Below are positions 309 to 30,700 of a DNA stretch of 64,000 nt, piece by piece. A model generated the notes under the pieces. That model made no database searches. It was given only the letters and a program-made list of their open reading frames with translations, and had not been told where the DNA came from. The first letter of the stretch is position 1. Every line of letters starts with the position of its first letter. This stretch comes from Candidatus Nomurabacteria bacterium. Its GTDB lineage: Bacteria > Patescibacteriota > Minisyncoccia > Phycocordibacterales > UBA9973. Both the position numbers and the translations under genes were made by a program. Location: the NCBI GenBank assembly GCA_003155695.1, contig PMDZ01000006.1, positions 20,007-84,006 of the forward strand. The letters run 5' to 3'.

Positions 309-689
309 ATGCAAACAAAAACGAAATTCATTATATTTATAGTCCTAATAATTGTAATAATCGGAGGTTTTGGCGTCTATACTGCTTTAAAACCGCAACC
401 GCCAAGCAAATTGGATGGTTTTGCCCAGTGTCTGAAGGCTAGTGGTGCAGAGTTTTATGGAGCATTTTGGTGCCCTCACTGTCAGGAACAGAAAGCAGAA
501 TTTGGAACATCTACTCAATATCTACCGTATATAGAGTGCTCTAATGCCGATAATTCTCAGAAACAAATTTGTATTGATAAAAAAATAGAAAGTTACCCAA
601 CTTGGATTTTCAAAGATGGCTCAATTCAAACCGGGAAATTATCGCTAGAGACTCTAGCCGGGAAGACGGGGTGTACCTTACCTCAATAA
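309..689 (+). CDS. Membrane-anchored thioredoxin-fold protein with a WCPHC active site (DsbA-like / VKOR-associated Trx-like domain)
   Basis: An N-terminal TM helix is followed by a CxxC motif (FWCPHCQEQK) in a Trx-like context. The gene directly precedes a DsbB-like gene. Confidence 0.65.
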   Translation: MQTKTKFIIFIVLIIVIIGGFGVYTALKPQPPSKLDGFAQCLKASGAEFYGAFWCPHCQEQKAEFGTSTQYLPYIECSNADNSQKQICIDKKIESYPTWIFKDGSIQTGKLSLETLAGKTGCTLPQ

Positions 690-693
690 TAAT

Positions 694-1251
694 ATGCCCG
701 CTTATTTAGAAACAGTAAATAAAATCCTTTCACTTGGAACAATTTTCCTCCAGGTGCTTATCCTTGTTTTAATTGTTAATCTGGTTTTTATTCGTCATCG
801 TAATAATAAAGTTTTACTTTTCTTTAAGAAATATACATTTTATTTTGGATTTATTGTTGCACTTCTGGCAGTTCTTCTTTCTTTATTTTATTCGGCAGTT
901 GTTGGGTTCCCGGCTTGTGAGCTTTGTTGGGTAGAAAGAATTTTCTTATACCCTCAGTTAATTCTTTTTAGTATGGAATTATACAAACGCGACCGTTCAA
1001 TTGTCGATTTTAGTATTGTCTTTGCAATTCTAGGAACACTTACTTCCATATATCATGTCTATGTGGAAAATGGGGGCGCAAGCAATCTTGCTTGTACAGT
1101 AACCAATCCATTAAATCCCGGCGTTGTCTCTTGCGCCGTTAGATATGTTTACGAATTTGGCTACATCACGATACCGATTATGGCTCTTACAATATCATTA
1201 TTTATAATTTCACTACTTCTGAATTATAAGTATATGTCTCATATGGAATAA
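694..1251 (+). CDS. dsbB: DsbB/BdbC-family disulfide bond formation membrane protein
   Basis: A multi-TM protein. The loop motif PACELCWVERIFL resembles E. coli DsbB PCVLCIYER, and a second Cys pair (C..13..C) sits in a later loop. It is 4 nt downstream of the Trx-like gene. Confidence 0.6.
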   Translation: MPAYLETVNKILSLGTIFLQVLILVLIVNLVFIRHRNNKVLLFFKKYTFYFGFIVALLAVLLSLFYSAVVGFPACELCWVERIFLYPQLILFSMELYKRDRSIVDFSIVFAILGTLTSIYHVYVENGGASNLACTVTNPLNPGVVSCAVRYVYEFGYITIPIMALTISLFIISLLLNYKYMSHME

Positions 1252-3156: not shown

Positions 3157-3582
3157 ATGCTTTTTGAATCAGTCGACAAAGAATCAAAAAATATTGTTTT
3201 CGTTTATACGACATGTTCTGGTATTGAAGAGGCAAGGTCAATAGGGCTCTCTGCCGTCGAAGAGAAGCTGGCTATTTCTGTGGATTATTGGCCAGTTAAT
3301 TCTATATATCCATGGCAAAATGTTATTAAGGAGATAGACCAATGTATGCTCATTTTTTCGACCCAAAAAATATTGAGTGATAAATTAATGAAACATATAG
3401 AGGCAGAACATTCATATGAAGTCCCAATGGTCATACGCTCAGATATGAAGATAACCAACCAGCCTTATTCTTTCTGGGTAGATAATACATTATCAAACAA
3501 AGATAAATATCTTACCGAAGAAGAATATGAACACAAAAAGAAAGAAGAAGAGGGAGGATATCAATATGATAAACTGAAGTAA
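3157..3582 (+). CDS. cutA: CutA1 divalent-cation tolerance protein with an acidic/basic C-terminal tail
   Basis: VYTTCSGIEEARSIGLSAVEEKLAISVDYWPVNSIYPWQ...HSYEVPMVI matches the conserved CutA core (VYTTxP..EEA..IA..L.E.LAAC.N..P..SIY.W.G.I..HPYEVPE). Confidence 0.8.
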   Translation: MLFESVDKESKNIVFVYTTCSGIEEARSIGLSAVEEKLAISVDYWPVNSIYPWQNVIKEIDQCMLIFSTQKILSDKLMKHIEAEHSYEVPMVIRSDMKITNQPYSFWVDNTLSNKDKYLTEEEYEHKKKEEEGGYQYDKLK

Positions 3583-3625: not shown

Positions 3626-5332
3626 TTGGAAAACAAACCAGAAAAAAGAATATGCCAGAATTGCAAGAAAGACTTCACTATCGAGCCGGAGGATTTTAAT
3701 TTTTACGAAAAAATCAAAGTTCCACCACCGACTTTTTGCTGGGAGTGTCGTCATCAGCGAAGACTAAGTTTCAGAAACGAAAGGATGTTTTATAAAAGGA
3801 ATTGCGGTTTGTGTGGAGAAAGTGTCGTGTCTCGTATTTCTCCAGATAAAAAATACCCAATGTATTGCCAAAAATGTTGGTGGAGCGACAAGTGGAACCC
3901 ATCAGATTACGGTCAAGAATATGACTTTTCAAAAACCTTTTTCGAACAATGGAAGGATTTATTTTTTAAGGTTCCTAGTATTCCGATGATTAATTCAAAC
4001 TCGGTTAACAGCGACTGGGTTAATCAAGAAACAGATGATAAAAATTGTTATTTGAATGTTGGAGGTCATTATAACGAGGATTCAGCTTACAATACATATG
4101 AAATATACGGAAAAAATTGTTTCGATGGTTACTGGATTTTAAATTGCGACCATTGTTCCAATTGCATACATTGCGAGAGAAGTTATTTTTCAAATTTTTC
4201 CGAGGAATGTCACGAGTGTTTATATACAAATTTTTCTTACGATTGCCGCAATTGTGACCATATGATCGGTTGTGCAGGACTCCGAAATAAAAAATATTAT
4301 ATATTTAATAAACAATACGAGAAAAAAGAATATGAAAAATTTTTAGAGGAACATCCATTTTCTTCCAATACTGGAGTTCTTTGGTGGATAAATGAAAGTC
4401 AAAAGATTTGGCTAAAATCTCCTCATCGAGAAAATATGATATTTAAAGCTACCAATTCTACCGGTAATGATTTATCTGAAGTAAAAAATTCCCATAATTG
4501 TTTTCAAGGAACAAATCTGGAAAACTGTAAAAATTCATTTATTTGCGGTTGGATGAAAGATACTCATGACAATAGTTCTCATGGAGCAGCCGAATTAGCA
4601 TATGAATGTGCACATGGTGGTGGATGTTACAATTCGAAATTTTTATTATATTGTATGGCAGGTGATCCTCTGAAAAAAATCAATCTTCACAATATTGAAT
4701 ATTCTGCGGCAGTTCTAAGCTCCAGCAATTGTTTTGGTTGTGTTGGCGTTCATGGGGGAGAATATATGATACTTAACCGCAAATATTCCAAAGATGAATA
4801 TAGTGAGTTATTGCCTAAAATTAAACAACACATGAATGATATGCCCTATGTCGATAAAAAGGGGAGAATCTATAAATATGGCGAATTTTTTCCAAGTGAA
4901 TTTTCTCCATTCGGTTATAATGAAACAACAGCAGAAGAATATATAAAATTAGAAAAAGAAGAAGTGCTCAAACAAGGTTATAACTGGAGTGATTATACTT
5001 CGGATGTGAAATATGAATTTTCGGATTATGTGATTCCCGATGATATTAAAGATGTTGGTGATGATATATTAGATAAAATTCTTAAATGCGAAGAAACTGG
5101 CAAAGCTTATAAAATAATCGAGATGGAGCTATCTTTCTATCGTCAGCTTGGGTTACCAATACCGCGTAAATCTCCACTTGCCCGCCACAAAGAAAGAATT
5201 TCCAAATTATTACCTTTAAAAATATTTAAAAGGAAATGTGATTTTTGTAAAAGAGAAATAAATACCTCATATCCTCCGGAACGTCCTGAAATTATATATT
5301 GCAAAAAATGTTATCAAAACGAAGTATACTAA
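3626..5332 (+). CDS. Cysteine-rich protein, paralog 2 of 3 (568 aa)
   Basis: Same architecture as 1298..3043. N-terminus CQNCKKDFTIEPEDFNFYEKIKVPPPTFCWECRHQRRLSFRNERMFYKRNCGLC. C-terminus ELSFYRQLGLPIPRKSP...ERPEIIYCKKCYQNEVY. Shares the block HMNDMPYVDKKGRIYKYGEFFPSEFSPFGYNETT with the other paralogs. Confidence 0.8.
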   Translation: MENKPEKRICQNCKKDFTIEPEDFNFYEKIKVPPPTFCWECRHQRRLSFRNERMFYKRNCGLCGESVVSRISPDKKYPMYCQKCWWSDKWNPSDYGQEYDFSKTFFEQWKDLFFKVPSIPMINSNSVNSDWVNQETDDKNCYLNVGGHYNEDSAYNTYEIYGKNCFDGYWILNCDHCSNCIHCERSYFSNFSEECHECLYTNFSYDCRNCDHMIGCAGLRNKKYYIFNKQYEKKEYEKFLEEHPFSSNTGVLWWINESQKIWLKSPHRENMIFKATNSTGNDLSEVKNSHNCFQGTNLENCKNSFICGWMKDTHDNSSHGAAELAYECAHGGGCYNSKFLLYCMAGDPLKKINLHNIEYSAAVLSSSNCFGCVGVHGGEYMILNRKYSKDEYSELLPKIKQHMNDMPYVDKKGRIYKYGEFFPSEFSPFGYNETTAEEYIKLEKEEVLKQGYNWSDYTSDVKYEFSDYVIPDDIKDVGDDILDKILKCEETGKAYKIIEMELSFYRQLGLPIPRKSPLARHKERISKLLPLKIFKRKCDFCKREINTSYPPERPEIIYCKKCYQNEVY

Positions 5333-5366: not shown

Positions 5367-7124
5367 ATGCATGTTGATGAAAAAGTAATTATAGACCTTC
5401 TCAATGATTCCGGATTAGTCACCAAAACAGATATTTCTGTCGCTCTTAAAAAATCTAAGGAAACCAACCAGCCACTCGGTTCGGTTTTGGTCAGTAACGG
5501 TAAATTGACCGAGAAAGACTGGAATAAAATTCAAGCGGTAGCTCTTGGCATTCCGTTCGTCAGTTTGGAAGGAGAGAAGATTGACCCGAACGTTTTAACT
5601 TTGATTCCCGAGCCGATTGCTCGAAATAATAATATTATTGCTTACAAAAAAACCAGTATTGGTTTGGAAGTGGCTATGCTTGATGTCGAGAACCTTCCGG
5701 TTATAGATTTTATTAAAAAGAAAGTTGGCACGCGCATTCTTCCCAGAATAACGAGCTCGGCTTCCATAAAAGAAGCCCTTAATCAATACAAGAAAAGTCT
5801 GCAAGCGGATTTTGAGGATATTATTAAAAAAGAAAGTAGCTCCATTAAGCCAGTAAAAGAAAGTGGCCCAGGTTCCGAAGAAAAATCTGAAAAAGAATTG
5901 AAAGAATTGGCCGAGGATTTGCCGATTGTTAAAATTGTAGACACTCTTATCTCGCACGCTATTACTCAAGGAGCTTCGGATATTCATATTGAACCGGAGG
6001 AAGAATCACTCATTGTTCGCTATCGTATTGACGGTATTTTGCATGATGCCATGGTACTACCCAAAGATACATCGTCAGGAATTGTCGCCCGTATTAAAGT
6101 CCTATCCAATCTAAAACTTGATGAGAAACGTCTTCCGCAAGATGGGCGTTTCAAAATCACAAACGACCAAGGCAATGTTTCTTTCCGTGTCTCGACTCTT
6201 CCGACATATTACGGCGAGAAAACTGTTATCAGAATTCTGCGGGAAAACGCCAAAGGTTTTTCTCTGGAAGGGCTTGGTTTCCACGGTGAAGCCCTGGAGA
6301 GAATCCATGACGGGATGAAAAAACGTACGGGCATGCTCCTTTGCGCCGGGCCGACCGGTTCCGGAAAGACGACAACCCTTTATACGATGCTCGATATTTT
6401 GAATACTCCTGATGTGAATATTTCAACCGTTGAAGACCCTATTGAATATCAAATGGCCAGAATTAATCAAACTCAGACGAAAGCGGAAATTGGGCTGACT
6501 TTCGCCAATGGTTTGCGTACACTACTACGTCAGGACCCTGATATAATCATGGTCGGAGAAATTCGTGACGGAGAAACAGCTTCGCTTGCCATAAATGCTT
6601 CACTCACCGGACATCTGGTTCTCTCGACTATTCACACTAACTCCGCGGCTGGAGCCATCCCTCGTATGATTGATATGGGGGTTGAACCATTCTTGATTGT
6701 TTCAACAGTTAAGACGGTTATTGCCCAGAGATTGGTCCGATTACTTGCAGAGGGGAAAGAAAAATATTTTTTAAGTGATATAGAAATGAAAGCCTTGGAA
6801 AAAGTGGTAGACCTCGACCGCGTTCTTGGATTTTTAAAATTGGAAAAAATTGTTGATGAGAATGCAACTTGGGACAAAATTCCATTTTATAAACCAAAAG
6901 GAAGCGAGGAATCAAAAGATGGCTTTAAGGGGCGTATCGGAATTCATGAAGTTCTTAAAGTGACAACGACTATTAAAGAAATGATTTTAAAGGGCTCGTC
7001 TGTAGATGAAACAGAAAAGATGGCAAAAAGTGAAGGAATGATGACAATGCTTGAAGATGGCATATTCTTGGCGGCCCAAGGTTTGACTTCGACGGAAGAA
7101 GTTCTTCGTGTTGTTTCGGAATAA
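5367..7124 (+). CDS. pilB: Type IV pilus assembly ATPase PilB (GspE family)
   Basis: An N-terminal T2SSE_N-like domain, the Walker A motif GPTGSGKTTTL, and the His/Asp boxes typical of GspE/PilB. The gene is followed by pilC. Confidence 0.9.
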   Translation: MHVDEKVIIDLLNDSGLVTKTDISVALKKSKETNQPLGSVLVSNGKLTEKDWNKIQAVALGIPFVSLEGEKIDPNVLTLIPEPIARNNNIIAYKKTSIGLEVAMLDVENLPVIDFIKKKVGTRILPRITSSASIKEALNQYKKSLQADFEDIIKKESSSIKPVKESGPGSEEKSEKELKELAEDLPIVKIVDTLISHAITQGASDIHIEPEEESLIVRYRIDGILHDAMVLPKDTSSGIVARIKVLSNLKLDEKRLPQDGRFKITNDQGNVSFRVSTLPTYYGEKTVIRILRENAKGFSLEGLGFHGEALERIHDGMKKRTGMLLCAGPTGSGKTTTLYTMLDILNTPDVNISTVEDPIEYQMARINQTQTKAEIGLTFANGLRTLLRQDPDIIMVGEIRDGETASLAINASLTGHLVLSTIHTNSAAGAIPRMIDMGVEPFLIVSTVKTVIAQRLVRLLAEGKEKYFLSDIEMKALEKVVDLDRVLGFLKLEKIVDENATWDKIPFYKPKGSEESKDGFKGRIGIHEVLKVTTTIKEMILKGSSVDETEKMAKSEGMMTMLEDGIFLAAQGLTSTEEVLRVVSE

Positions 7125-7131
7125 TGGATGA

Positions 7132-7253
7132 ATCCCGTACGAGATCCACATGTTATCTTTTACAGAATAGTTAAAAATAATTATAAGGTTTATATTATAA
7201 ACAATAAATTAGTAAGAAACGTCCCATCTTTGAGGGACTATCTCGTACGGGAT
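7132..7253. promoter_or_regulatory. 14-bp perfect inverted repeat (ATCCCGTACGAGAT / ATCTCGTACGGGAT) bracketing the pilB-pilC intergenic spacer; the right arm overlaps the pilC ATG
   Basis: Arms at 7132..7145 and 7240..7253 read from the sequence. An inner hairpin GTCCCATCTTTGAGGGAC lies at 7221..7238. Confidence 0.4.
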
Positions 7254-8466
7254 GAAATTTAAATATAAAATACAAAATAAAAATAATGAAATAATGGAAG
7301 GAATTATTGAATCTCCCGATAAGTTTACTTTGGCCAGGGAATTGCGGGAAAAAGGAAATACTCCGATTTCGATAGAAGAGGTCAAAGAAAAAGAAGGAAT
7401 TTTATCGGTGAAGTTAAGTTTTTTTTCGAGAGTTTCTCTCTCGGAAAAAATCATGTTTACCAATAATTTAAGCGGAATGTTAACGGCTGGACTTTCTTTG
7501 AGTCGAGCATTATCAATATTGGAAAAACAATCGACCAATCATGCTCTCTGCGATATACTGCGTGGACTGGAAGAAGATATAAGCAAAGGTAACTCTCTTT
7601 CGGAGGGAATGAAAAAATTTCCCAAAATTTTTTCCGGAATTTTCGTTCCAATGGTTCATGCAGGAGAAGAATCCGGTAATTTGCCAAGCACACTGACCGA
7701 AGTTGGTATAAGTCTTAAGAAATCCTACGATTTGAATAAAAAAATAAAAGGAGCGATGACATACCCAGGAATTATTCTTTGTGCCATGATAGTAATCGGT
7801 ATATTTATGATGATTTATGTTGTTCCAACTTTGACCAAGACATTTAAAGATTTAGGAACTGAATTACCGACATCGACAAAAATAATTATTTGGATTTCCG
7901 ATACTATTAGTCAGCACATAATCCTATTCTTCGCGATAATAGTCTTTGTTATCATAGGTATTGTTTTACTTTCCAAACTTAAACTGGTCCAAAGATATTT
8001 TGACCGTATCATTTTATATATTCCGGTTATCGGGAATATAGTTAAAGAAGTTAATACTGCTCGCACAGCAAGGACAATGTCGTCGCTTTTATTATCGGGT
8101 GTCAGCATTTCAAATTCTTTATCGATAACGGAAGAAGTTCTTCAGAACGTTCATTACAAGGAACTGATTCATAAATCAATCGGGTCCATAGAAAAAGGAA
8201 TGGTTTTATCCGCTTCATTTAAAGAAAATATTTTTCTGTATCCAATCATGATGGGTGAGATGGTTGAAGTTGGAGAAGAAACCGGTAATCTGTCAAAAAT
8301 GCTTTTGGATATTGCCAATTTTTATGAAAATGAAGTAGATAATAAAACCAAAGACTTATCGACGATTATTGAACCGGTATTGATGCTTATAATCGGTGCA
8401 GTTGTCGGAATTTTTGCTGTCTCAATGATAAAACCGATGTATTCGGTTATGAATAATATTAGCTAG
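7252..8466 (+). CDS. pilC: Type IV pilus inner-membrane platform protein PilC (GspF family)
   Basis: Two T2SSF-like repeats with three TM segments, in the usual position after pilB. Confidence 0.85.
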   Translation: MKFKYKIQNKNNEIMEGIIESPDKFTLARELREKGNTPISIEEVKEKEGILSVKLSFFSRVSLSEKIMFTNNLSGMLTAGLSLSRALSILEKQSTNHALCDILRGLEEDISKGNSLSEGMKKFPKIFSGIFVPMVHAGEESGNLPSTLTEVGISLKKSYDLNKKIKGAMTYPGIILCAMIVIGIFMMIYVVPTLTKTFKDLGTELPTSTKIIIWISDTISQHIILFFAIIVFVIIGIVLLSKLKLVQRYFDRIILYIPVIGNIVKEVNTARTARTMSSLLLSGVSISNSLSITEEVLQNVHYKELIHKSIGSIEKGMVLSASFKENIFLYPIMMGEMVEVGEETGNLSKMLLDIANFYENEVDNKTKDLSTIIEPVLMLIIGAVVGIFAVSMIKPMYSVMNNIS

Positions 8467-8470
8467 TTAG

Positions 8471-10285
8471 ATGATAAATTATTTTAAAATAAAAAATAAA
8501 AAAAATGGATTTACATTAGTGGAAACATTAGTGGCGACGGCTATTTTTGTCTCTATCTCGGTTGGAATATATGTAGGGCTAATGAATATTTTAAAAATAA
8601 TGAATATAATCCGGACAAAAAATATAATGACGGATATTGCCAATGAACAGTTTGAAATTGTCCGAAATTTGCCATATAGTAGCGTGGGCACAGTTAGTGG
8701 AATTCCTTCCGGTATTCTTTCCCAAAGTAAAACAATTAATCGTGATAATAAAGTTTTCGATGTGGATACTGTGGTTCGTAATTTTGACGACCCGTTTGAT
8801 GGCACTTTTGACGGGACTCCCAAAGATACATCTCCGGCAGATATGAAGATAATAGAATTGACGATTGCATGTACTTCATGCGACGATACTTTAGCCCCGA
8901 TCTCTTTTACGACAAAAGTTGCGCCGAAAAATCTTGAAACCACTTCCGTAGATGGGGCAATTGTTGTTAAAGTTTTCGACTCGTCGGGATTGCCTGTCGG
9001 TGGTGCTAGTGTTAATGTTGTAAATAATAGTATTACTCCCGCTGTAAATATAAACGATGAAACCGATGTAAATGGAATGTATACAATTGTTGATGCTCCT
9101 CCGTCGGTTGGTAGTTATCAGATTATCGTTACTAAAGACGGGTATTCTACTGACCGCACTTATCAAACTGGAGGAACCGGTAACCCGGCGCATCCAACTA
9201 AACCAAACCTGACTGTCGTTGTTCAACAAATTTCGCAAATGTCCTTCACAATAGATCAAACCAGCACTATTGATTTTTCCAGTATAAATAGTCAGTGTGT
9301 GGCAACTCCGGGTTTTGATTTTACTTTGTCGGGAAGTAAATTAATCGGAACAAATCCTAACACTCTCAAATACTCCAATTCGCTTGTGACAGACAGTTCA
9401 GGACTGCTAACTTTACCTAATGTTGAATGGGATACATATAACATTACCGGTATTGATAGTGCTTATGATATTATCGGAACCAATCCGCTTTTATCACTCG
9501 GTATCAATCCCAATGTTGAACAAAATATGCAGATTATTACCGCTCCCAAAAATGGCAGAAGGCTTTTGGTTGTAGTGAGAGACCAATCTACCGGGTTGCC
9601 TATTTCCGACGCTACTGTTGCTGTCACTGGTCCAAGTAGCTATTCGCAAAGTTATACTACAAGCCAGGGATTTTTGACTCAAACAGATTGGTCCGGGGGA
9701 AGTGGACAAACCTCCTTTGGAAGCGCAAATAAGTTCTTCGATTCGGACGGTAACATTGATTATAGTTCTTCGCCTGGGAATTTAAGCTTGAAAAAACTAA
9801 GTAATTATGTTCCGAATGGCTATCTCACTTCGTCTACTTTCGATACAGGTTCGGCAAGTAATTTTAGACAAATTATTTGGAGTCCGGCAACGGAACCATC
9901 TCAAACAGGAACATCAAGTGTTAGATTCCAAATCGCTACAAACAACGATAATGCCACATGGAATTTTACCGGGCCTGATGGAACTTCATCCACATATTAC
10001 AGTTCCGCCAATCAAAATATAAGTTCAACCAATAACGGACAAAGATATATCCGCTATCGGTTGTATCTCTCTACTTCAAACCAATCATATACTCCGACTA
10101 TATCGGATATTTCCTTCACTTATACTTCAGCTTGTATCCCTCCCGGACAAGTATCTTTCTCTGGTCTTGCTTCCGGTAGTTACGGTATTTCTGTGACAAA
10201 AACCGGTTATCACAGTACGTCAAAAAATATAACAATTGCAAGTGGAGATAGCTGGGTCAAGCAAGAAATTACGATTTCGCCATAA
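8471..10285 (+). CDS. Large (604 aa) type IV pilin / prepilin-type protein
   Basis: A class III signal peptide: MINYFKIKNKKNG|FTLVETLVATAIFV, i.e. the G-F-T-L-V-E cleavage/methylation motif followed by a hydrophobic helix. The long S/T/G-rich globular region contains carboxypeptidase-regulatory-like beta domains. Confidence 0.8.
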   Translation: MINYFKIKNKKNGFTLVETLVATAIFVSISVGIYVGLMNILKIMNIIRTKNIMTDIANEQFEIVRNLPYSSVGTVSGIPSGILSQSKTINRDNKVFDVDTVVRNFDDPFDGTFDGTPKDTSPADMKIIELTIACTSCDDTLAPISFTTKVAPKNLETTSVDGAIVVKVFDSSGLPVGGASVNVVNNSITPAVNINDETDVNGMYTIVDAPPSVGSYQIIVTKDGYSTDRTYQTGGTGNPAHPTKPNLTVVVQQISQMSFTIDQTSTIDFSSINSQCVATPGFDFTLSGSKLIGTNPNTLKYSNSLVTDSSGLLTLPNVEWDTYNITGIDSAYDIIGTNPLLSLGINPNVEQNMQIITAPKNGRRLLVVVRDQSTGLPISDATVAVTGPSSYSQSYTTSQGFLTQTDWSGGSGQTSFGSANKFFDSDGNIDYSSSPGNLSLKKLSNYVPNGYLTSSTFDTGSASNFRQIIWSPATEPSQTGTSSVRFQIATNNDNATWNFTGPDGTSSTYYSSANQNISSTNNGQRYIRYRLYLSTSNQSYTPTISDISFTYTSACIPPGQVSFSGLASGSYGISVTKTGYHSTSKNITIASGDSWVKQEITISP

Positions 10286-10290
10286 ATATT

Positions 10291-10908
10291 ATGTTTACGA
10301 ATTCATTTAAAAAAAATAATGGTTTTACACTTTTGGAAATTCTGATTACGATGGTGATTTTTACCGCAATTATGGGTGTTGTAACCATGTTTGCCAGAGA
10401 CTTGTTTTATTACAACAGTATGTTTTCCAGTGGTTTAACTTCTTATGATGAAGCAAGAAAAGTTCTTCAGCCTATCTCTTCCGAGATTCGTTCCGCTTCG
10501 CCATCTTCTTTGGGTTCTTATCCTATTGAGACAGCAGGTATTACAGCTTTTACTTTTTTTTCCGATATTAATAGTGATGGGTTGAAAGAAAGAATTAGAT
10601 ATTTTTTATCCGGAACTACATTAATGAAAGGAGTTATTGTACCGTTAGGAAGCCCATTGCAGTATTTGTCGAATACGGAAGTTCTTACAGAAATTGTGCA
10701 CAATGTTCGAAATGGTTCAACTCCCATATTTACTTATTATGATTCCAGTTATAACGGTAGTACATCTCCTTTGTCGCAACCGGTTTCAATTTTATCCGTC
10801 CGTCTTGTTATGATAACTTTAATTCTTGAAGGAGACCCCAATAGGCAACCTGCCCCGATAACAGTTACTACGGAAGTAAGTATTCGTAACCTTAAAGATA
10901 ATTTATGA
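10291..10908 (+). CDS. Prepilin-type N-terminal cleavage/methylation domain protein (minor pilin / pseudopilin)
   Basis: KKNNG|FTLLEILITMVIFTAIMGV prepilin motif. Confidence 0.8.
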   Translation: MFTNSFKKNNGFTLLEILITMVIFTAIMGVVTMFARDLFYYNSMFSSGLTSYDEARKVLQPISSEIRSASPSSLGSYPIETAGITAFTFFSDINSDGLKERIRYFLSGTTLMKGVIVPLGSPLQYLSNTEVLTEIVHNVRNGSTPIFTYYDSSYNGSTSPLSQPVSILSVRLVMITLILEGDPNRQPAPITVTTEVSIRNLKDNL

Positions 10909-12386
10909 TTTATAAAATAGAAAAATACAATAAAGATAGTCGCGGAGTAATTCTTTTGAATGTTCTGGTGTTTTCTGCTTTAGCGATATCTCTTGTGACG
11001 TTCTTTATTACCTGGGCATCCTCCAGTGTCAAAATAGTAGAATCAACATTGCACAAAGAACAAGCTTTTCAGATTGCGGAAGCTGGGGTAGATTATTATC
11101 GCTGGCATTTGGCTCATGCTCCTAGTGATTTTAAAGACGGAACAACAAACAATGGACCTTATACCCACATTTTTTACGATAAAGATGGAGTTGCTATCGG
11201 TAGTTTTATTTTAACCATTACTCCTCCTATAATAGGCTCAACTATCGTTACAATCAAATCGGAGGGACATGTAAATAATTACCCATCAATCAAAAGAACA
11301 ATTCAAACAAAACTCGCTATTCCATCTTTTGCAAAATACGCTATTGTTGCAAACGATAATATGCGTTTTGGAGAAGGAACTGAAATTTTTGGTCCAGTTC
11401 ATTCGAACGGTGGTATCAGATTCGATGGAATAGCTCACAACATTGTGACAAGTGCCCTTTCTTCCTATGATGACCCCGATCACTCGGGTGGTTCAGAGTT
11501 TGGTGTTCATACCCACGTGAATGTCGGAGGTGGAATTAACGATTCTTTTCGCTCACAAGAGGCGCCTCCGACAAGTCCGGTTCCAACAAGGAGTGATGTC
11601 TTTCTCGCAGGACGTCAATTCCCGGTTCCGCAATCTGATTTCACCGGAATTACAAATGATCTTTCTGTAATTAAAACAAATGCTACGTCAGGGGGTAAGT
11701 ATTTGGCTCCATCAGGAGCTCTTGGCTATCATATTGTACTTAAAACAAACGATACTTATGATTTATATAAAGTAAATAATTTGGCTACTCCCTCCGACAG
11801 CGATTGTGCCAGCACTTCAAATTACGGGGACGATACCTGGGGAACATGGAGTATAGCTTCTGGCGGACAAACTCTGGTAGGGAATTACAATAATCCGGCA
11901 AATGGACTTATCTTTGTGGAAGATAATGTTTGGGTTGACGGTCAGATAAATACCGCCAGAATTACAATTGCTGCCGGAAAATTCCCGGATAATGTAGGTA
12001 CCAGAAAAAGTATATTTATTAATAACGACCTTATGTATACAAACTATAATGGGCAAGATGTAATCGGTCTAATTGCCCAAGACGACGTGACTGTCGGAAT
12101 GATAAGTGACGACAACCTTCGCATTGATGCCGCTCTCATGGCGGTTAATGGCAGAGTTGGAAGACATTATTACAGTGATCAATGTAGCCCGTATCATTTA
12201 AGAAATAGCATTACTCTTTATGGAATGATAGGCAGTAATCAACGATATGGATTTGCTTACACAGATAATACTGGTTACGATACCCGTACAATTATTTATG
12301 ATGCCAATTTGTTATACGGGCCACCGGTTTCTTTTCCTCTAACTTCCGATAAATACTCAACTATTTCGTGGGATGAGATGGAGTAA
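10905..12386 (+). CDS. Pilus-associated membrane-anchored protein (PilX-like, degenerate prepilin motif)
   Basis: The N-terminus SRGVILLNVLVFSALAISLV is hydrophobic and prepilin-like but lacks the Glu at +5. Its start overlaps the upstream pseudopilin gene by 4 nt, so it is operonic. Confidence 0.45.
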   Translation: MIYKIEKYNKDSRGVILLNVLVFSALAISLVTFFITWASSSVKIVESTLHKEQAFQIAEAGVDYYRWHLAHAPSDFKDGTTNNGPYTHIFYDKDGVAIGSFILTITPPIIGSTIVTIKSEGHVNNYPSIKRTIQTKLAIPSFAKYAIVANDNMRFGEGTEIFGPVHSNGGIRFDGIAHNIVTSALSSYDDPDHSGGSEFGVHTHVNVGGGINDSFRSQEAPPTSPVPTRSDVFLAGRQFPVPQSDFTGITNDLSVIKTNATSGGKYLAPSGALGYHIVLKTNDTYDLYKVNNLATPSDSDCASTSNYGDDTWGTWSIASGGQTLVGNYNNPANGLIFVEDNVWVDGQINTARITIAAGKFPDNVGTRKSIFINNDLMYTNYNGQDVIGLIAQDDVTVGMISDDNLRIDAALMAVNGRVGRHYYSDQCSPYHLRNSITLYGMIGSNQRYGFAYTDNTGYDTRTIIYDANLLYGPPVSFPLTSDKYSTISWDEME

Positions 12387-23449: not shown

Positions 23450-26400
23450 TTGTATATTATGAGAAAATTAAAGTTCCTAAAACTCCATTGGGCAAAACTT
23501 CTTTCGGTATTCTTTTTAATATTACTTCTCGGAGCTTATGCCCATATTTTCGCTATTGACCGAAAATATAATCCGGGAGAAATATTGAACCCGGATTGTT
23601 TTCCGGGAGAAACAAATTGCACGGTTGATATTACAACTGGAAGTTCACAGTGGACGACAAATGGGTCTAGTATTTATTACAACACAGGGAATGTTGGAGT
23701 AGGGGTGATTGCACCGACAGCACAATTACAATTTAAAGCTGGAACTACTACTGCTGGAACTGCTCCGCTTAAATTCACTGTCGGAACAAATTTAACTAAT
23801 GCCGAAGCCGGAGCGATGGAATGGAATGGAACAAATCTTTTTATAACCCAAACATCAGGTCCAACTAGAAAAACAATTGCTTATACCACGGATATTTCAG
23901 ATAGTTCACCTATCACTATTGTTGATAGTACCAATCTTGTTTCGACCGGACTTCAGGCAGCTGGACCCGTTCCCTATGGAACACAAGATGCGATTATCAT
24001 TGGTCGCTGGGCAGGATTCAATATGATTTCCGGTTATAATTCAATTTTTTTAGGCCTTGAAGCTGGTGCTCAAGCCAATGCCGAGTCCTCTAATTTTATA
24101 GGACATGGCGCTGGTAGTGGTACTACATCTCAATATTCAAACTTTTTGGGTCATTTTGCTGGTGAAAATTCTACCTCAGCTAACTATTCAAATTTTATTG
24201 GTAGTGATGCTGGAGCGTCTACTTCCGCTACTTTTTCAAATTTCATCGGTTTTGTTGCTGGCCGCGATGCAACTTCCGCTTCCTATTCAAACTTTTTTGG
24301 GTCTAGCGCTGGTTCTTCTGCTGCTAATGCCAGCAATTCAAATTTTTTTGGTGCAGGCGCTGGAGCGAACGCCACTAATGCATCTTATTCAAATTTAATC
24401 GGTTTCAGAGCCGGACTATCTCCCATTAGTATTAATAACAGTATCGGTGCCAATAATATAATTATCGGGACAAACATTTCATTACCAACCGCAACAGCTA
24501 ATTCGATGAACTTGGGTGGTGTTTTGTTTGCCACCGGAACTTATGCAACTACAACAGGTAATCCATCAACCACAGCCGTTGCGACGGGTAAAGTTGGAGT
24601 CGGAGTTGTTTCGCCATCGGCAAGATTGCAACTTGCTGCCGGAACCGCTTCCGCCGGTACTGCTCCACTTAAATTAACTGCCGGGACAAACTTGGGAACA
24701 ACCGAAGCTGGAGCGATTGAATACGACGGTTCCCATTTATATTTTTCGGCCACAAATAATGGAGACAGATATCAACTGGACCAACAAGCAGATGGAATAG
24801 TAAGTTCCCCATGGTTAGCAAATGGTTCTGATATTTATTATGATGGTGGCAATGTCGGCATTGGAAATGATTCACCGACATCAAAACTTGACATCAAACT
24901 TGATTTGACAGTATCTTATAATCAAAGTTTTTCCGGTAGTGGATTAAATGATGCCATATATTCAGGAACATATTCTGGATCAAATCCTCCAAACGCTGTA
25001 ATTGTTCAAATAGATGGCGAAGGCACACCTGATACTTTCACATATTACGATAACCATTCAGATTGTTCTTATCCTAATGGATTTTCAATTCCAATTACCG
25101 GCTCGGCGCAATTAGTTTGCGATGGTATTTCTATTACATTTACAAATATAACTGGGCATCACAGTGGAGATACTTGGACATATGAAATTAACAGTCCGGA
25201 TTCTAATCCGATTATTAAAATAAGTGATAACACGGGCAATAATTACTTTACTGTTAATGCGGTTGCCGATAAATCAAATTTCCTAGGTACTAATGCTGGT
25301 AATGGTGCTGTCTCTGCTCATGATTCAAACTTCATCGGTACATCTGCTGGTAATGGTGCTGTCTCTGCTCATGATTCAAACTTCATCGGTACATCTGCTG
25401 GTTATGGTGCAACCTCAGCTTCCGGCTCAAACTTCTTAGGCCTAAATGCCGGTATTTATGCTACTGGTGCCCATAACTCAAACTTCTTAGGTCCTAGTGC
25501 TGGTAATGGTGCCACCTCTGCCATCTTTTCGAACTTTATAGGTACTGTTGCTGGTCTTAGTGCCACCTCCTCTTCCTATTCAAATTTTATAGGTAATGGT
25601 GCTGGATATCAAGCCACTTCTGCTTCTTACTCAAACTTCTTAGGGATAAATGCAGGTAATGGTGCTACCTCTGCTATCAACTCAAACTTCTTAGGTCCTT
25701 GGGCTGGTTCTGGTGCTATCAATGTTTCTTATTCAAATTTATTTGGCTATGAGACGGGGATGTCTTTTACTGGCAACAACATTGGCTCCAACAACATAAT
25801 CCTCGGAACAAGTATTTCTCTACCTAATGCGGCAACCAATGCTATTAATTTAGGAGGAGTCATATTTGCAACAGGGACACATTCTGACACAAATGGCATA
25901 TCTATCATTGCTGAAGCTACTGGCAAAGTTGGTATCGGAGTCGTCTCACCGTCAGCTCGCTTACAACTTGCTGCCGGAACCGCTTCCGCCGGTACTGCCC
26001 CACTTAAATTAACTGCCGGTACAAATCTTTCGACAACCGAAGCCGGAGCGATTGAATACGACGGTTCCCATTTATATTTTTCGGCCACAAATTCCGGAAG
26101 CCGTTACCAACTCGACCAGCAAGGTGGAACTCCTTCTCCTATTACTATTGTTAACACCTCAAATCTTTTTTCAACAGGAATTAGTGCTGGAACTGGGGTA
26201 ACTTCTACAACTGATTCAAACTTTTTTGGTACTGATGCAGGTGATTCTGCTACTGGTGCTTTTGGTTCAAACTTTTTTGGTCCATCTGCTGGAATTTCAG
26301 CCCCGGATGCTTTTTACTCAAACTTTTTTGGTTTACAAGCTGGGGCAGGGGCTAATGATGCCAGCAATTCAAATTTTTTAGGTCATAATGCTGGTGCTAG

Positions 26401-27781
26401 TGCCATCAATGCCGCATTATCAAACTTCTTAGGACAATCCGCAGGTTTAGGAGCTGTAGGAGCTTCTGAGTCAAACTTCATAGGTGATTCTGCCGGATAT
26501 CAAGCCACCTCTGCTCATGATTCAAACTTCTTAGGAAATGCTGCTGGTCAAGGTGCTTCCCTTGCCTCTTACTCAAATTTATTTGGTTACCAATCGGGAA
26601 GGTCTTTCCCTGTAGATACTCCCACTAACAATATCGGTTCCAACAACATAATCATCGGAACAAATATTTCTTTACCTAATGCGACTGCAAATACCATGAA
26701 CTTAGGTGGAGTTCTTTTTGCCACAGGAACATATGCAACGACGACTGGCGACCCATCTATCACCGCAGTCTCAGGTGGCAAAGTCGGTATCGGCGTCGTT
26801 TCGCCATCATATACTCTCCAAGTCGGAAACTCATCTATCTCCGGAGTAGTCGCCCGATTTGAAAATAGTGTCGGAACTTGTGACATCAATCCTACTACCT
26901 CATCGGTTGGTTGTTCTTCCGACATAAGATTAAAGAAAAATATAACTACCCTCGATAATACAGAATTTGCTCTCTCAACTGTCCCTGATATGACAGGTAA
27001 ATCAACATTGGAAAAAGTTCTGAATCTCACTCCGGTCACATACAACTGGAATAGTGAAAGTGATACCGACCAGAAACACATTGGGTTCATCGCCCAAGAA
27101 ATGGAACAAATATTCCCTGATTTGGTCAGCACCGACCCGGTAACAGGTCTTAAGTCTCTTAGTTACGCAAACATGACGCCATACCTAGCCAAAGCCATAC
27201 AGGAGATGGATTTAAAAATTACAGATATTAATAATCAGGAATTAGAAAATAGTTGGAGGGATAGCATACTTGCTTGGTTTAAAAATACCTCAAATGGAAT
27301 TACTGAATTTGTCTCAAGTATTCTTCGAGCCAAAGATAAACTTTGTATCGGAGAGGGAAGTGACGAAGTTTGTATAACAAAGGAAGACTTATTGCAAATG
27401 AAAAATAATGCCGGACTAAACGCCGGAACAGCTGCCGTGCTTCCGACTGTTGATAACTCCGGCTCATCCGGGACAGATAATTCAACTGCTGGGACATCGG
27501 ATACTTCGGGAACAGGAGCATCCAATACCGGAACAACGACCGACACCACCGGTACGACAGGGGGGAACGACGGTAACAATACCGATACAACCGGAGGAAA
27601 CACAAATAACACAACCACAGATACATCCACCACAAATACTCCCGATACTGGAACGACGAATATAAATGCTGGTAATGATACGACCGGTAATGCAAGTGGT
27701 GATACGACAAATACGGATACAACCAACACTAATAACAATAATAGTGGAACGGATAATCAAAATAATGACCTCGGTAATTAA
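23450..27781 (+). CDS. Giant (1443 aa) secreted repetitive surface protein with a C-terminal phage-tail-fibre-type intramolecular chaperone (Peptidase_S74-like) domain and a T/N/G/D-rich tail
   Basis: A signal peptide, then three modules each starting with GKVG(V/I)GVVSPSARLQLAAGTASAGTAPLKLTAGTNL..TEAGAIEYDGSHLYFSATN. Each module is followed by 10-15 tandem 17-aa repeats (SNFIG..AG.GA.SA..). Near the C-terminus is CSSDIRLKKNITTLDN...LNLTPVTYNWN...HIGFIAQEMEQIFPDLV...LSYANMTPYLAKAIQEMDLKI, the S74 chaperone signature. Confidence 0.75.
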   Translation: MYIMRKLKFLKLHWAKLLSVFFLILLLGAYAHIFAIDRKYNPGEILNPDCFPGETNCTVDITTGSSQWTTNGSSIYYNTGNVGVGVIAPTAQLQFKAGTTTAGTAPLKFTVGTNLTNAEAGAMEWNGTNLFITQTSGPTRKTIAYTTDISDSSPITIVDSTNLVSTGLQAAGPVPYGTQDAIIIGRWAGFNMISGYNSIFLGLEAGAQANAESSNFIGHGAGSGTTSQYSNFLGHFAGENSTSANYSNFIGSDAGASTSATFSNFIGFVAGRDATSASYSNFFGSSAGSSAANASNSNFFGAGAGANATNASYSNLIGFRAGLSPISINNSIGANNIIIGTNISLPTATANSMNLGGVLFATGTYATTTGNPSTTAVATGKVGVGVVSPSARLQLAAGTASAGTAPLKLTAGTNLGTTEAGAIEYDGSHLYFSATNNGDRYQLDQQADGIVSSPWLANGSDIYYDGGNVGIGNDSPTSKLDIKLDLTVSYNQSFSGSGLNDAIYSGTYSGSNPPNAVIVQIDGEGTPDTFTYYDNHSDCSYPNGFSIPITGSAQLVCDGISITFTNITGHHSGDTWTYEINSPDSNPIIKISDNTGNNYFTVNAVADKSNFLGTNAGNGAVSAHDSNFIGTSAGNGAVSAHDSNFIGTSAGYGATSASGSNFLGLNAGIYATGAHNSNFLGPSAGNGATSAIFSNFIGTVAGLSATSSSYSNFIGNGAGYQATSASYSNFLGINAGNGATSAINSNFLGPWAGSGAINVSYSNLFGYETGMSFTGNNIGSNNIILGTSISLPNAATNAINLGGVIFATGTHSDTNGISIIAEATGKVGIGVVSPSARLQLAAGTASAGTAPLKLTAGTNLSTTEAGAIEYDGSHLYFSATNSGSRYQLDQQGGTPSPITIVNTSNLFSTGISAGTGVTSTTDSNFFGTDAGDSATGAFGSNFFGPSAGISAPDAFYSNFFGLQAGAGANDASNSNFLGHNAGASAINAALSNFLGQSAGLGAVGASESNFIGDSAGYQATSAHDSNFLGNAAGQGASLASYSNLFGYQSGRSFPVDTPTNNIGSNNIIIGTNISLPNATANTMNLGGVLFATGTYATTTGDPSITAVSGGKVGIGVVSPSYTLQVGNSSISGVVARFENSVGTCDINPTTSSVGCSSDIRLKKNITTLDNTEFALSTVPDMTGKSTLEKVLNLTPVTYNWNSESDTDQKHIGFIAQEMEQIFPDLVSTDPVTGLKSLSYANMTPYLAKAIQEMDLKITDINNQELENSWRDSILAWFKNTSNGITEFVSSILRAKDKLCIGEGSDEVCITKEDLLQMKNNAGLNAGTAAVLPTVDNSGSSGTDNSTAGTSDTSGTGASNTGTTTDTTGTTGGNDGNNTDTTGGNTNNTTTDTSTTNTPDTGTTNINAGNDTTGNASGDTTNTDTTNTNNNNSGTDNQNNDLGN
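25295..25396 (+). repeat. Perfect 51-nt tandem duplication (2 units) inside the giant surface-protein gene
   Basis: gctggtaatggtgctgtctctgctcatgattcaaacttcatcggtacatct occurs twice back to back, encoding AGNGAVSAHDSNFIGTS x2. Diverged copies flank it. Confidence 0.9.
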
Positions 27782-30700
27782 AATATTTTTCAAATATATA
27801 CTCCTCATTATTTTAATTGGCGGAGCTTTTGGGGTTTTTGCCTCGACTACCAACGGAACGATAGATGCGGGCAATCACACGGCGCTTCTTTGCATGAATG
27901 ATATTTGTTCCGTCACCACCAGAATAAATTTTTTGACGACCAACGGCAGAGCTGTACATGTCACAAATAGTGCGTTAACCGGTGAAATATGGTCGGAACA
28001 GGTAGGTTGGATAAATTTAAATCCGACAAATAGCGGGGTAGCCAATACAACGAGAGGTATTCTTTCCGGCGATGCTTGGGGAGAAAATGCTGGTTGGATA
28101 AATTTTGATCCCTATAATGGTGGAGTAGTCATAAATAATAGGGGTGAATTTGTCGGCTTTGCTTGGAGTCAAAATTACGGATGGATTAAATTTGATTGTA
28201 CTGTTGCGAATGCTTGTGTCAAAACTGATTGGCGCCCGAGTAATGATGGGGGTGGTGGAGGAGGGCCACCAGTGGTGGATATATGCCCAAATATTGCCGG
28301 GAATCAAACATTAATACCGGATGGTCTTGTTATCAATGCTCTTGGGCAATGTGTTTCCCCAGAACAATGTAATGTCCTAGATGGTGCACTTAAGCAACCA
28401 CTTGATGTCATGATTATAATTGACAAATCAGGCAGTATGGCTGGCACCAAACTGTCTCAAGCCAAAACCGCCGCTACAGCCTTCATCAATAATCTGGTTC
28501 TCGGTTCTGACCGGGTCGGATACGTCTCATATTCTACGACGGCAACACTCGAAAATGGGCTGACAACATCTTTTGATACAATTAAAGCAAAGATAGCAAG
28601 TACTGTATCAAATGGAAATACGAATATCGGAGGAGCGGCAAGAATTGCTTATCAAGAAATGTTGATCAATGGTCGGGCGGGAGTTAAGCATGTCATCATT
28701 ATTCTGACCGATGGACAAGCAAATGTCTCGGATGTTAGAACTCTGACCCCAAATCAATACGCGATCAATCAATCGGACCTGGCCAAACTCCGAGGCATGA
28801 TTGTTTATTCTATCGGACTGGGGACAGATGTAGATTCCGATCTTCTTTCTTCTATGGCAACCTTGCCAAGTTATTTTTATAATTCTCCGACTGGTAGCGA
28901 CCTTTCAAATATTTATCTGCAAATTGCCGCTATTGAATGTACCGCTGCCCCTTCAAAGGTTTTCGATACGGTTATTTATGATGCAAATAGAAATGGATTA
29001 TATGATACCAATGAAAGGGGATTAGCTGGATCTATTATCTCCTTAACAAGTAGTGATGGCAGTCAACAAACAAGAACGATGACAACGCTTGCCGACGGGA
29101 GTTTCCTTTTTGATGCTGTAACACCAGGGAACTATTCAGTCTGCAATACATCACCTTCGGGGATGTATCAAACCAAACCAGTTTCAAATGGATGTTTTGA
29201 TATAAGTGTTGTTCAAGGTATTAATGTCACAGATCTCAAATTTTTAGTTACTGGTAACCAACCATTTTGTTCGCTTAATCCAAATGACCCATCATGTGAT
29301 GTTTGCCCAAACATTTCAGGTATCCAAAGTACAATTCCGAATGGATTTACCATTAACTCAAGTGGTAATTGCGTTCCAACCCCAACATTCTGCGAACAAA
29401 ATCCCACCGACCCATCATGTAATCCAACATTCTGCGAAAACAATCCCAATGACCCATCATGTGATGTTTGCCCAAATATTTCAGGTACCCAAAGTACAAT
29501 TCCGGATGGATATACCTTGAACTCAAGTGGTAATTGTGTTCCGGCTCTAACATTTTGTGAACAAAATCCCACCGACCCATCTTGTATAACTCCAACGTTC
29601 TGTTCACTTCACCCGAGTGACTCAACATGTGTAGAGCCAAGTTTCTGTACACTTCATCCCACAGACCCATCTTGTATAACTCCAACATTCTGCACACTTC
29701 ACCCTAACGATCCGTCATGCACAACCCCATCATTTTGTGCTCTACATCCCACCGACCCATCTTGTATAACTCCGGCATATTGTGCTCTTCACCCGACTGA
29801 CCCATCATGTTCAACGCCGGAGATATTTTGTGCACTTCATCCGACCGACCCATCGTGCATTAATCCGACATTTTGTTCTCTCCATCCGACGAATATATTA
29901 TGTGTAATTAAAGATACAACATCCGGTATTTTAGAAACAATAAATGGAAATCTTAATAATACTATTACCGATGTAGCCAAAAATGTTGCCGAGGCAACTG
30001 AAATTATCTTTACAAATCCAGTCGGGAAAGTTGTCACTAAAATAGTTGAAACAACCGGAGCTGTCACTGGTGCAATCGGCATTGCCGGCTTAGTTTTCTC
30101 CGGACCAATTGCTCTGGCTGATGCTTTTCTAATTCCAATTCGGTTGTGGAGTCTTCTTCTTGCTCTGTTTGGAATCAAAAAAAGGAAAACTCCATGGGGT
30201 ACAGTTTATGACAGTGTCACAAAGCAGCCCCTTGACCCGGCATATGTCGTTTTACAGAATTTAGATGGCAAAGAAGTTGCGACTTCGATTACCGACCTTG
30301 ATGGTAGATATGGTTTTCTTGTTCCACCTGGAGCGTATAGAATTATCGCCAGAAAAACAAATTATGAATTCCCTTCAAAGAAATTACTTGATAGACAGAA
30401 AGATGAATTATATGATGATTTGTATTTCAATGAAATCATAGAGGTTAAAGAAGGGGGAATCATAACCCGTAATATCCCAATGGATCCGATTAAGTTTGAT
30501 TGGAATGAATTTGCCAAGCGCGATCGCAAATTAATGAAGTTCTACTCGAGACGCAGTCTTTGGGTTGCTCTTATTTCGGATATTCTGTTTTTCCTTGGTC
30601 TAATCATCTCTACAATTGCGACAATTATTACGCCAGTTACATACAATATCATCGTTCTCGTTGTTTATCTAGTTTTACTCATATTAAGAGGGACGATATT

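Follow-up and report, generated by a model that had tools for sequence, protein, structure and literature searches.

A large Patescibacteria-specific protein family with paired zinc fingers on either side of a predicted, duplicated beta-helix core

The gene P2 encodes a Cys-rich protein with close relatives in the window (the whole 64-kb stretch of DNA analysed here), and the locus raises the question of how such a protein is built and what its construction could serve. An HMM made from P2 homologs identified exactly two full-length paralogs in the window, P1 and P3; the three proteins are 37–42% identical to one another, contain 32–40 cysteines apiece and retain four (P1) or three (P2 and P3) intact zinc fingers. 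P2 orthologs are 50–73% identical to P2 with 99–100% length coverage, and the AF2 model of P2 has a pLDDT of 84 and a pTM of 0.85. Neither a signal peptide nor a transmembrane segment was found in the family proteins, whose N-termini are hydrophilic (maximum KD(19) ≤ 1.15), and P1, P2 and P3 are predicted to be soluble cytoplasmic proteins. Directly upstream of P1 are genes for DsbB and a membrane thioredoxin; the region directly downstream of P2 is occupied by a type IV pilus operon. The positions of the genes, and of the segments that we delineate in P2, are collected in Table 1.

Table 1. Positions in the window of P2, its segments, its two paralogs and the CutA1 homolog.
Feature	Position	Strand	Description
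P2	3626..5332	+	ORF of 568 aa, TTG start, order N-A-B-L-C; gene under study
P1	1298..3043	+	581 aa, GTG start; all four zinc sites intact; 42% identity with P2
P3	14905..16665	+	586 aa; Cys of N-terminal finger 2 lost; 37% identity with P2
CutA1 homolog	3157..3582	+	PF03091, E = 5e-21; between P1 and P2
P2 N-terminal finger 1	3647..3793	+	Residues ~8–56; zf_Tbcl type CxxC-x24-CxxC, then Arg-rich helix CR.QRR..FRNER
P2 N-terminal finger 2	3794..3901	+	Residues ~57–92; zf_Tbcl_2 type CxxC...YCxxCWW; PF23477 matches
P2 core A	3911..4360	+	Residues ~96–245; N-cap helix, about nine 12-residue coils, C-cap Y.IFNK.Y.K.EY plus helix (predicted)
P2 core B	4361..4825	+	Residues ~246–400; second capped copy of the predicted beta-helix, less regular, with indels; pLDDT 60–74
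P2 segment L	4826..5065	+	Residues ~401–480; MPYVD..G..YKYGEFFP.E.SPFGYNET...IPDDIKDV.DDIL; acidic, aromatic-rich, conserved, non-repeated
P2 C-terminal finger 1	5066..5227	+	Residues ~481–534; homolog of N-terminal finger 1; degenerate, one Cys remaining (KCEETGKAY...PRKSPLARHKER)
P2 C-terminal finger 2	5228..5329	+	Residues ~535–568; zf_Tbcl_2 type C.C...YC..CYQ.EVY

Two internal duplications account for most of this layout. The first-pass annotation had proposed, from motif strings that are all found in the P2 and P3 translations, that the N-terminal module is echoed at the C-terminus and that the central core consists of two consecutive half-domains, and both proposals are borne out in P1, P2 and P3. 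Smith–Waterman alignment of the first 100 with the last 110 residues gives scores of 133 (P1), 107 (P2) and 122 (P3), compared with a mean of 29 (SD 5–6) for shuffled sequences (z = 15–18, the real score being matched by none of 300 shuffles); in hhalign, using a 62-sequence alignment (A1), the N and C modules match with 99.2% probability (E = 2e-19, 77 columns). Core A aligns with core B at z = 19 (P1), 6 (P2) and 22 (P3), and with 99.7% probability in hhalign (E = 2e-26, 135 columns), whereas the control pairs (N/A, N/B, L/A, L/B and C/A) remain at noise level (0.1–5.6%). The internal similarity in the self-alignment of each protein is significant and far exceeds that of cysteine spacing alone.

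The duplicated units are larger than the motifs that first drew attention to them: the motifs do repeat, but the repeats comprise a whole two-finger module of ~90 residues and a whole half-domain of ~140 residues, over which the six half-domains of P1–P3 align with 10 invariant columns. The terminal modules had also been described as mirrored, which is correct for the palindromic order of the domains (fingers, core, core, fingers) but not for the modules themselves, which repeat directly and share one N-to-C orientation. Core B and the C-terminal module are separated by a conserved, unique segment of ~80 residues (segment L) that the first-pass annotation did not include; it matches none of N, A, B or C in the hhalign controls, has a mean net charge of −6.3 and is 45% identical between paralogs. 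Beneath both duplications, a third level of repetition is present in core A as a strict 12-residue coil repeat. The architecture of ribbon, core A, core B and ribbon that had been suggested holds throughout the family, with the order N-A-B-L-C present in 229 of 257 family ORFs from 85 loci and most of the others situated at locus ends or representing adjacent halves of an interrupted gene. Both internal duplications are older than the radiation of the paralogs.

Each terminal module is read as a zf_Tbcl finger (PF13451) followed by a zf_Tbcl_2 finger (PF23477), two ‘probable treble clef’ types neither of which, to our knowledge, has a known function. With Pfam gathering cut-offs of 24 bits for PF13451 and 27 bits for PF23477, the modules in the window score below threshold (PF13451: 19.2 bits for the P1 N-terminus and 15.0 bits for the P3 C-terminus; PF23477: 10.3 and 12.9 bits for the two P1 modules), while several relatives score above it (PF13451: 26.1 bits for ortholog P0063 and 30.8 bits for a stand-alone module in locus L086; PF23477: 30–31 bits for orthologs P0027, P0063 and P0080). 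The window modules therefore probably belong to zf_Tbcl by transitivity, as the 90-residue L086 module both exceeds the cut-off and matches the HMM of the family N module (E = 2e-31). The distinguishing feature of the present proteins is that the zf_Tbcl/zf_Tbcl_2 pair occurs twice per chain and encloses a predicted beta-helix core for which Pfam offers no model. Small CxxC-x17-CxxC proteins from Methanosarcina mazei, which contain a seemingly similar two-CxxC finger, bind zinc by ICP-MS (PMC12704099); the spacing in finger 1 of the family is CxxC-x24-CxxC.

Conservation of the zinc sites across 211 full-length family proteins is graded from the outside inwards. The outermost sites are near-invariant, with the four Cys of N-terminal finger 1 conserved at 98–100% (both CxxC knuckles are present) and the principal Cys of C-terminal finger 2 (columns 536, 561, 579 and 582) at 98–99%. 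The inner sites are degenerate, and differently so at each end: the four Cys of N-terminal finger 2 are 54–81% conserved and the site is gone in ~46% of the family (intact in P1 and P2, lost in P3), and C-terminal finger 1 has lost its site in ~12% of the family, including P2, which lacks three of the four Cys, and all P2 orthologs. Both ends of the P2 AF2 model follow the order beta-beta-alpha-alpha-beta-beta-beta-alpha, and the degenerate C-terminal finger 1 is still modelled as beta-beta-alpha-alpha (pLDDT 86–95). The first fingers carry a mean net charge of +3.7 (N-terminal) and +7.2 (C-terminal); all other segments are neutral or acidic on average, the one exception being core B's short N-cap (+3.1). 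This distribution of charge favours the binding of nucleic acid or of an acidic partner by the first fingers. Basic zinc fingers are equally able to mediate protein–protein contacts, and the second finger (C..CGK.I.S.....IYC..C) is weakly LIM-like: its marginal match (E = 0.023, 18.6 bits) covers the second half of LIM domains such as that of CRP1 (PDB ID: 1b8t), with the finger placed over their second zinc site. The first finger bears no resemblance to LIM, and scores against the Pfam LIM model fall far short of the cut-off.

The core is the new element. Each of its halves is predicted to be a narrow right-handed beta-helix of 12-residue coils in which every third residue faces the lumen (Cys more often than Ser, and Ser more often than Leu or Val). 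Core A keeps an indel-free 12-residue register through about nine coils in P1, P2 and P3, and strands recur every 6 residues in core A of the P2 model. The autocorrelation of the family profile peaks at lags of 3, 6, 9 and 12 (12 being the largest) and more weakly at 24 and 36, and an independently built alignment of another subfamily has the same 3/12 periodicity. Coils follow the consensus (N/D)-C-x, repeated four times: inward positions hold Cys in 32% of cases, Ser in 23%, Leu in 10% and Val in 7%, Asn or Asp occupies the corners, and a Tyr/Phe ladder runs along one face; N, Y, D, F, E and K are found at outward positions, where Thr is not frequent. The pLDDT of the coils is moderate (50–77 in P2), with 78.7 overall for a model of a core-only protein. 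As each half has an N-cap helix and a conserved C-cap, the duplicated unit is, in the model, a complete capped beta-helix. We hold this structural description of the family proteins, fingers and core together, with high confidence.

The predicted fold of the core is superposable with that of the Tenebrio molitor antifreeze protein TmAFP (PDB ID: 1ezg), a right-handed beta-helix that likewise has 12-residue coils with every third residue directed inwards. At 15% identity, with no detectable sequence homology, the relationship is a structural analogy and not one of family membership. The proteins also differ in their details: TmAFP has a Thr-x-Thr ice-binding ladder, absent from the core, where the inward Cys are flanked mostly by N/D, Y/F and K/E, and one disulfide per coil (Cys at coil positions 2 and 8), for which the core offers no evidence of paired Cys. 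In addition, the family core is bacterial and predicted to be cytoplasmic, and its helix is duplicated, helix-capped and fused to zinc fingers. Other right-handed beta-helices (TibA, 4q1q; Ag43, 7kob; phage tailspikes; pectate lyases) are more distant, being secreted or virion proteins with three-sided coils of ~20–25 residues and only 4–8% identity to the core, and Foldseek against the PDB returned no fold match to the core. Hexapeptide (left-handed beta-helix) and pentapeptide repeats were rejected, as neither their periods (6/18 and 5/20, respectively) nor a Pfam match to them was found.

The high cysteine content of the family (22–44 Cys per protein) comes from two places: the four fingers, with up to 16 zinc-ligand Cys, and the core, with a buried ladder of Cys. 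Within this ladder, Cys at different inward positions are uncorrelated (mean phi of −0.08 at lag 6, and a maximum of 0.25 anywhere). As their occupancy is statistically independent, neither obligate disulfides nor Cys4 metal sites are likely, and the Cys/Ser ladder seems to serve packing rather than disulfide formation or metal binding. Disulfide pairing and metal ligation by the helix Cys were set aside on these co-occurrence statistics, which contain no signal for either. In the last coil of helix A, columns 205, 208, 211 and 214 are 84–92% Cys, forming a CxxCxxCxxC motif that is incomplete in P2. A ferredoxin-type 4Fe–4S site is not supported there, as the motif differs from CxxCxxCxxxCP, is not invariant and is accompanied by no Fer4 match.

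More than 6,289 proteins match P2, and a profile of the half-domain matches ~3,300 clusters (3,315) at 50% identity, 1,117 of them at E ≤ 1e-30. Nearly all of the named sources are Patescibacteria, mainly from Paceibacteria/Parcubacteria lineages. Two MAGs with proteobacterial labels also carry family members; we take these labels to be mis-assignments, and the family is confined to Patescibacteria. The core has no annotated homolog in any of the resources consulted: no Pfam or NCBIfam model matches it in full-length proteins, PADLOC models gave no match at E ≤ 0.1 for P1–P3 or the core-only protein P0173, and searches of PDB sequences using one protein, the A1 profile or a finger profile as the query returned nothing significant beyond the marginal LIM-like match. 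The one apparent exception, a match of a core-only protein to PF24967 (NTS_TR130), is barely over the cut-off and is regarded as spurious. IMG/VR viral contigs contain no relatives and, together with the empty PADLOC result, this led us to reject a defence or phage origin. Full-text searching of the literature found no description of the family. The proteins thus form an undescribed, very large and lineage-restricted family in which one known kind of zinc-finger pair is combined with a new, duplicated core, predicted to be a TmAFP-like beta-helix.

Natural split forms show where the architecture can be divided. An isolated half-domain, which the first-pass annotation had suggested looking for as a stand-alone protein in other genomes, was not found: every one of the best 150 of the 3,315 half-domain matches has at least two copies. 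The double core does occur separately, in core-only proteins of ~315 residues (A, B and a tail containing a shortened form of segment L) that constitute a robust subfamily in Peregrinibacteria and Gracilibacteria and have up to four Cys per coil; the helices can evidently function without covalently attached fingers. A run of three adjacent genes on one strand of L086 specifies, in turn, a core-only protein, the 90-residue finger pair described above and a full-length member. The coexistence of core-only, finger-only and full-length genes indicates that the core duplication is common to both core-containing architectures and that the finger pair is separable from it.

Family genes are organized in co-directional arrays, with 1–12 genes per 20-kb locus among the 85 loci and a largest array of 16 genes in 29 kb (contig JALLOO010000001.1). 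Gene overlaps of 4 nt are common, with six in a row in locus L001. P2 clusters with one member each of L001 and L003 (L001_4 and L003_2) at 57–61% identity, compared with 37–45% between paralogs; the P2 ortholog group spans two other genomes, so at least some of the paralog subfamilies are older than the divergence of those genomes. Identity between paralogs varies by segment, from 51% in both the N and C modules to 37% in core A and 34% in core B, and 15 of the 32 positions specific to the P2 orthogroup are in the coils of helix A. Among the neighbours, a VirD4/TraG-like ATPase is present near the family in 32 of the 85 loci, interleaved with the family genes; tblastn detected no VirD4-like ATPase in the 64-kb window. 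CutA directly adjoins family genes in 12 of the 85 loci (the window included) and DnaJ is another recurrent neighbour, whereas DsbB and pilus genes do not recur beside the family in the other 84 loci. The neighbourhood signal may in part be synteny inherited among related genomes.

For the role of the proteins, we favour a scaffold reading. The two beta-helices would form a rigid scaffold with paralog-specific determinants on its surfaces, those of helix A foremost; the helices are the segments least identical between paralogs and the P2-specific positions are concentrated in helix A, which is the basis for assigning specificity to these surfaces. The first fingers at the two ends, basic and conserved, would bind a shared polyanionic partner, which is most likely nucleic acid. 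Groups of paralogs from one operon would act jointly, perhaps as a hetero-oligomer; in many of the genomes they would do so alongside the interleaved VirD4/TraG-like ATPases and CutA. The translationally coupled arrays suggest that the paralogs act together; for hetero-oligomerization, the operon structure is the one line of evidence. To be set against this mechanism are the versatility of basic fingers, the finger-free core proteins, the window without an ATPase and the core without an annotated homolog. We consider the explanation as a whole, comprising the structure, the family and a scaffold with basic fingers, to have about an even chance of being right; the specific mechanism, in which scaffold-borne fingers hold a polyanion and paralogs work jointly, is drawn from sequence and is put forward as tentative and rather doubtful.

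Other readings of the same architecture were weighed against the scaffold. The first-pass annotation had suggested binding of a symmetric ligand or of nucleic acid, or head-to-tail dimerization; on this reading, the palindromic domain order would give a pseudo-two-fold particle, a homodimer or symmetric-ligand binder, able to clasp a palindromic nucleic acid or to pair with a second copy head to tail. The fixed palindromic order and the basic finger at either end are consistent with such a particle, as is the pTM of the P2 model, which suggests one rigid body. However, the unique segment L breaks the symmetry, the ends have degenerated unequally (most clearly N-terminal finger 2 and C-terminal finger 1), helices A and B are unequal both in how regular they are and in their paralog-specific positions, and the double core works as a separate finger-free protein in Peregrinibacteria and Gracilibacteria. 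Pseudo-symmetry is plausible as an architecture, the two ends are demonstrably non-equivalent, and a symmetric mode of binding would be unlikely. Binding or buffering of metal would have Zn, Cu, Fe or Fe–S clusters ligated within or along the helix by the four Cys that a coil can turn inwards, those of the conserved CxxCxxCxxC in helix A's final coil above all, in conjunction with CutA. This reading would draw on the abundance of Cys, on the conservation of the last-coil columns, on the coils of the core-only proteins that reach four Cys, and on the adjacency of CutA, annotated as a divalent-cation tolerance protein, here and elsewhere; with inward Cys occupancy independent from position to position, we judge this role distinctly unlikely.

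TmAFP, the best structural match to the core, is secreted and has a disulfide in each of its coils, and an analogous role as an exported, disulfide-stabilized beta-helix effector or surface component can be envisaged, leaving the cell through VirD4-like ATPases or the pilus machinery and oxidized by DsbB and thioredoxin. The genes on either side of P1 and P2 and the coupling ATPases interleaved with the family in many loci accord with such a route. Export is nevertheless very unlikely: signal peptides and transmembrane segments are lacking, the Cys–Cys covariation at i, i+6 that obligate disulfides need is absent, the orthologs are better conserved across candidate phyla than typical fast-evolving effectors, and the DsbB and pilus adjacency is not a recurrent feature of the other loci compared. 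The four zinc fingers per protein also argue against it, such a number being typical of intracellular proteins. An antifreeze or ice-binding function, suggested purely by analogy with TmAFP, would be extremely improbable for proteins that have no Thr-x-Thr ladder, are predicted to be cytoplasmic and carry zinc fingers.

Patescibacteria have genomes of ~1 Mb, and in some of these up to 29 kb (16 genes) is given to this one family. The large share of the genome, together with paralog subfamilies that are common to distant genomes, suggests an important, lineage-specific and fully unannotated function. The domain map, with its two types of zinc finger, new core, unique linker and natural split forms, is usable for annotation and for the design of constructs, and it documents what is predicted to be a cytoplasmic counterpart, in bacteria, of the antifreeze beta-helix of insects. 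A more far-reaching version of the scaffold reading, which we rate as decidedly improbable, is a Patescibacteria-specific cytoplasmic assembly in which 3–16 ancient paralogs would be translated stoichiometrically, their helices stacked or paired into a hetero-oligomeric rod or lattice, their fingers holding nucleic acid, and VirD4/FtsK-like ATPases loading or remodelling the whole. Were this correct, the assembly would organize the nucleoid, DNA uptake or RNA in a lineage-specific manner, and other bacteria would have nothing equivalent. One VirD4-like ATPase is itself fused to a zf_Tbcl_2 finger.

Among the family loci from other genomes, L086 carries the family architecture in naturally split form, as three successive genes (see table), the 90-aa gene of which encodes a stand-alone zf_Tbcl plus zf_Tbcl_2 module. 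A fusion was found in P0262, a 731-aa homolog from the representative search, in which a GNAT acetyltransferase domain lies N-terminal to a complete family member within one protein and most of the zinc-ligand cysteines of the fingers are substituted. One of the short fragments at locus L007 includes masked X residues; these fragments probably either are the remains of pseudogenes or stem from faulty assembly. The core-only homolog P0306, which has cores A and B without fingers, matched Pfam PF24967 (NTS_TR130) across its last coils and cap; despite a score of 29.5 bits against a cut-off of 25, this match was taken as chance.

The biggest of the family arrays seen, with 16 genes, lies on JALLOO010000001.1, of which loci L014 (1-15229) and L047 (1-21764) are overlapping views; at 29 kb, it occupies a big fraction of a genome of roughly 1 Mb. 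TraG/VirD4-like ATPases are interspersed among the family genes in 32 of the 85 loci compared, and the ATPase of locus L046 itself contains a zf_Tbcl_2 finger (residues 462-496) together with a long low-complexity tail. The conserved ORF beside CutA in loci L001 and L003 is without any Pfam match, and is missing in the window, where the paralog P2 comes straight after CutA.

Location of features in the window and in the family loci of other genomes
Feature	Location	Details
Co-directional family genes (16)	JALLOO010000001.1 1-28964	29 kb; single-cell Patescibacteria genome
TraG/VirD4-like ATPase ORF	L046 3863-6367	TrwB_AAD_bind, DUF87, TraG-D_C
Conserved ORF, ~65 aa	L001 4585-4782; L003 8047-8247	Between CutA and the array's first gene
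Three successive same-strand genes	L086 8001-10899	314 aa core-only, 90 aa finger module, 549 aa full-length member
Short ORF fragments	L007 4435-4803, 15301-15510	Match to N-terminal finger module only
Thioredoxin-like protein, membrane-anchored	Window 309-689	Same strand as P1
DsbB homolog	Window 694-1251	Same strand as P1
Type IV pilus operon	Window 5367-12386	PilB-type ATPase and PilC; three proteins that have a methylation motif at the N-terminus or resemble pilins
Two very large ORFs, 1443 aa and 1100 aa	Window 23450-30968	Mutual overlap of 116 nt

In the window, the thioredoxin-like/DsbB pair ends 46 nt 5' of the paralog P1, a neighborhood that did not recur in the other family loci examined, and the type IV pilus operon begins 34 nt past P2; at L086, a T2SSE ATPase lies 0.8 kb downstream from the family genes. 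Elsewhere in the window, the 1443-aa ORF contains a Peptidase_S74 intramolecular-chaperone domain and the 1100-aa ORF contains VWA, SdrD_B and CarboxypepD_reg domains; both are likely surface or adhesion proteins.
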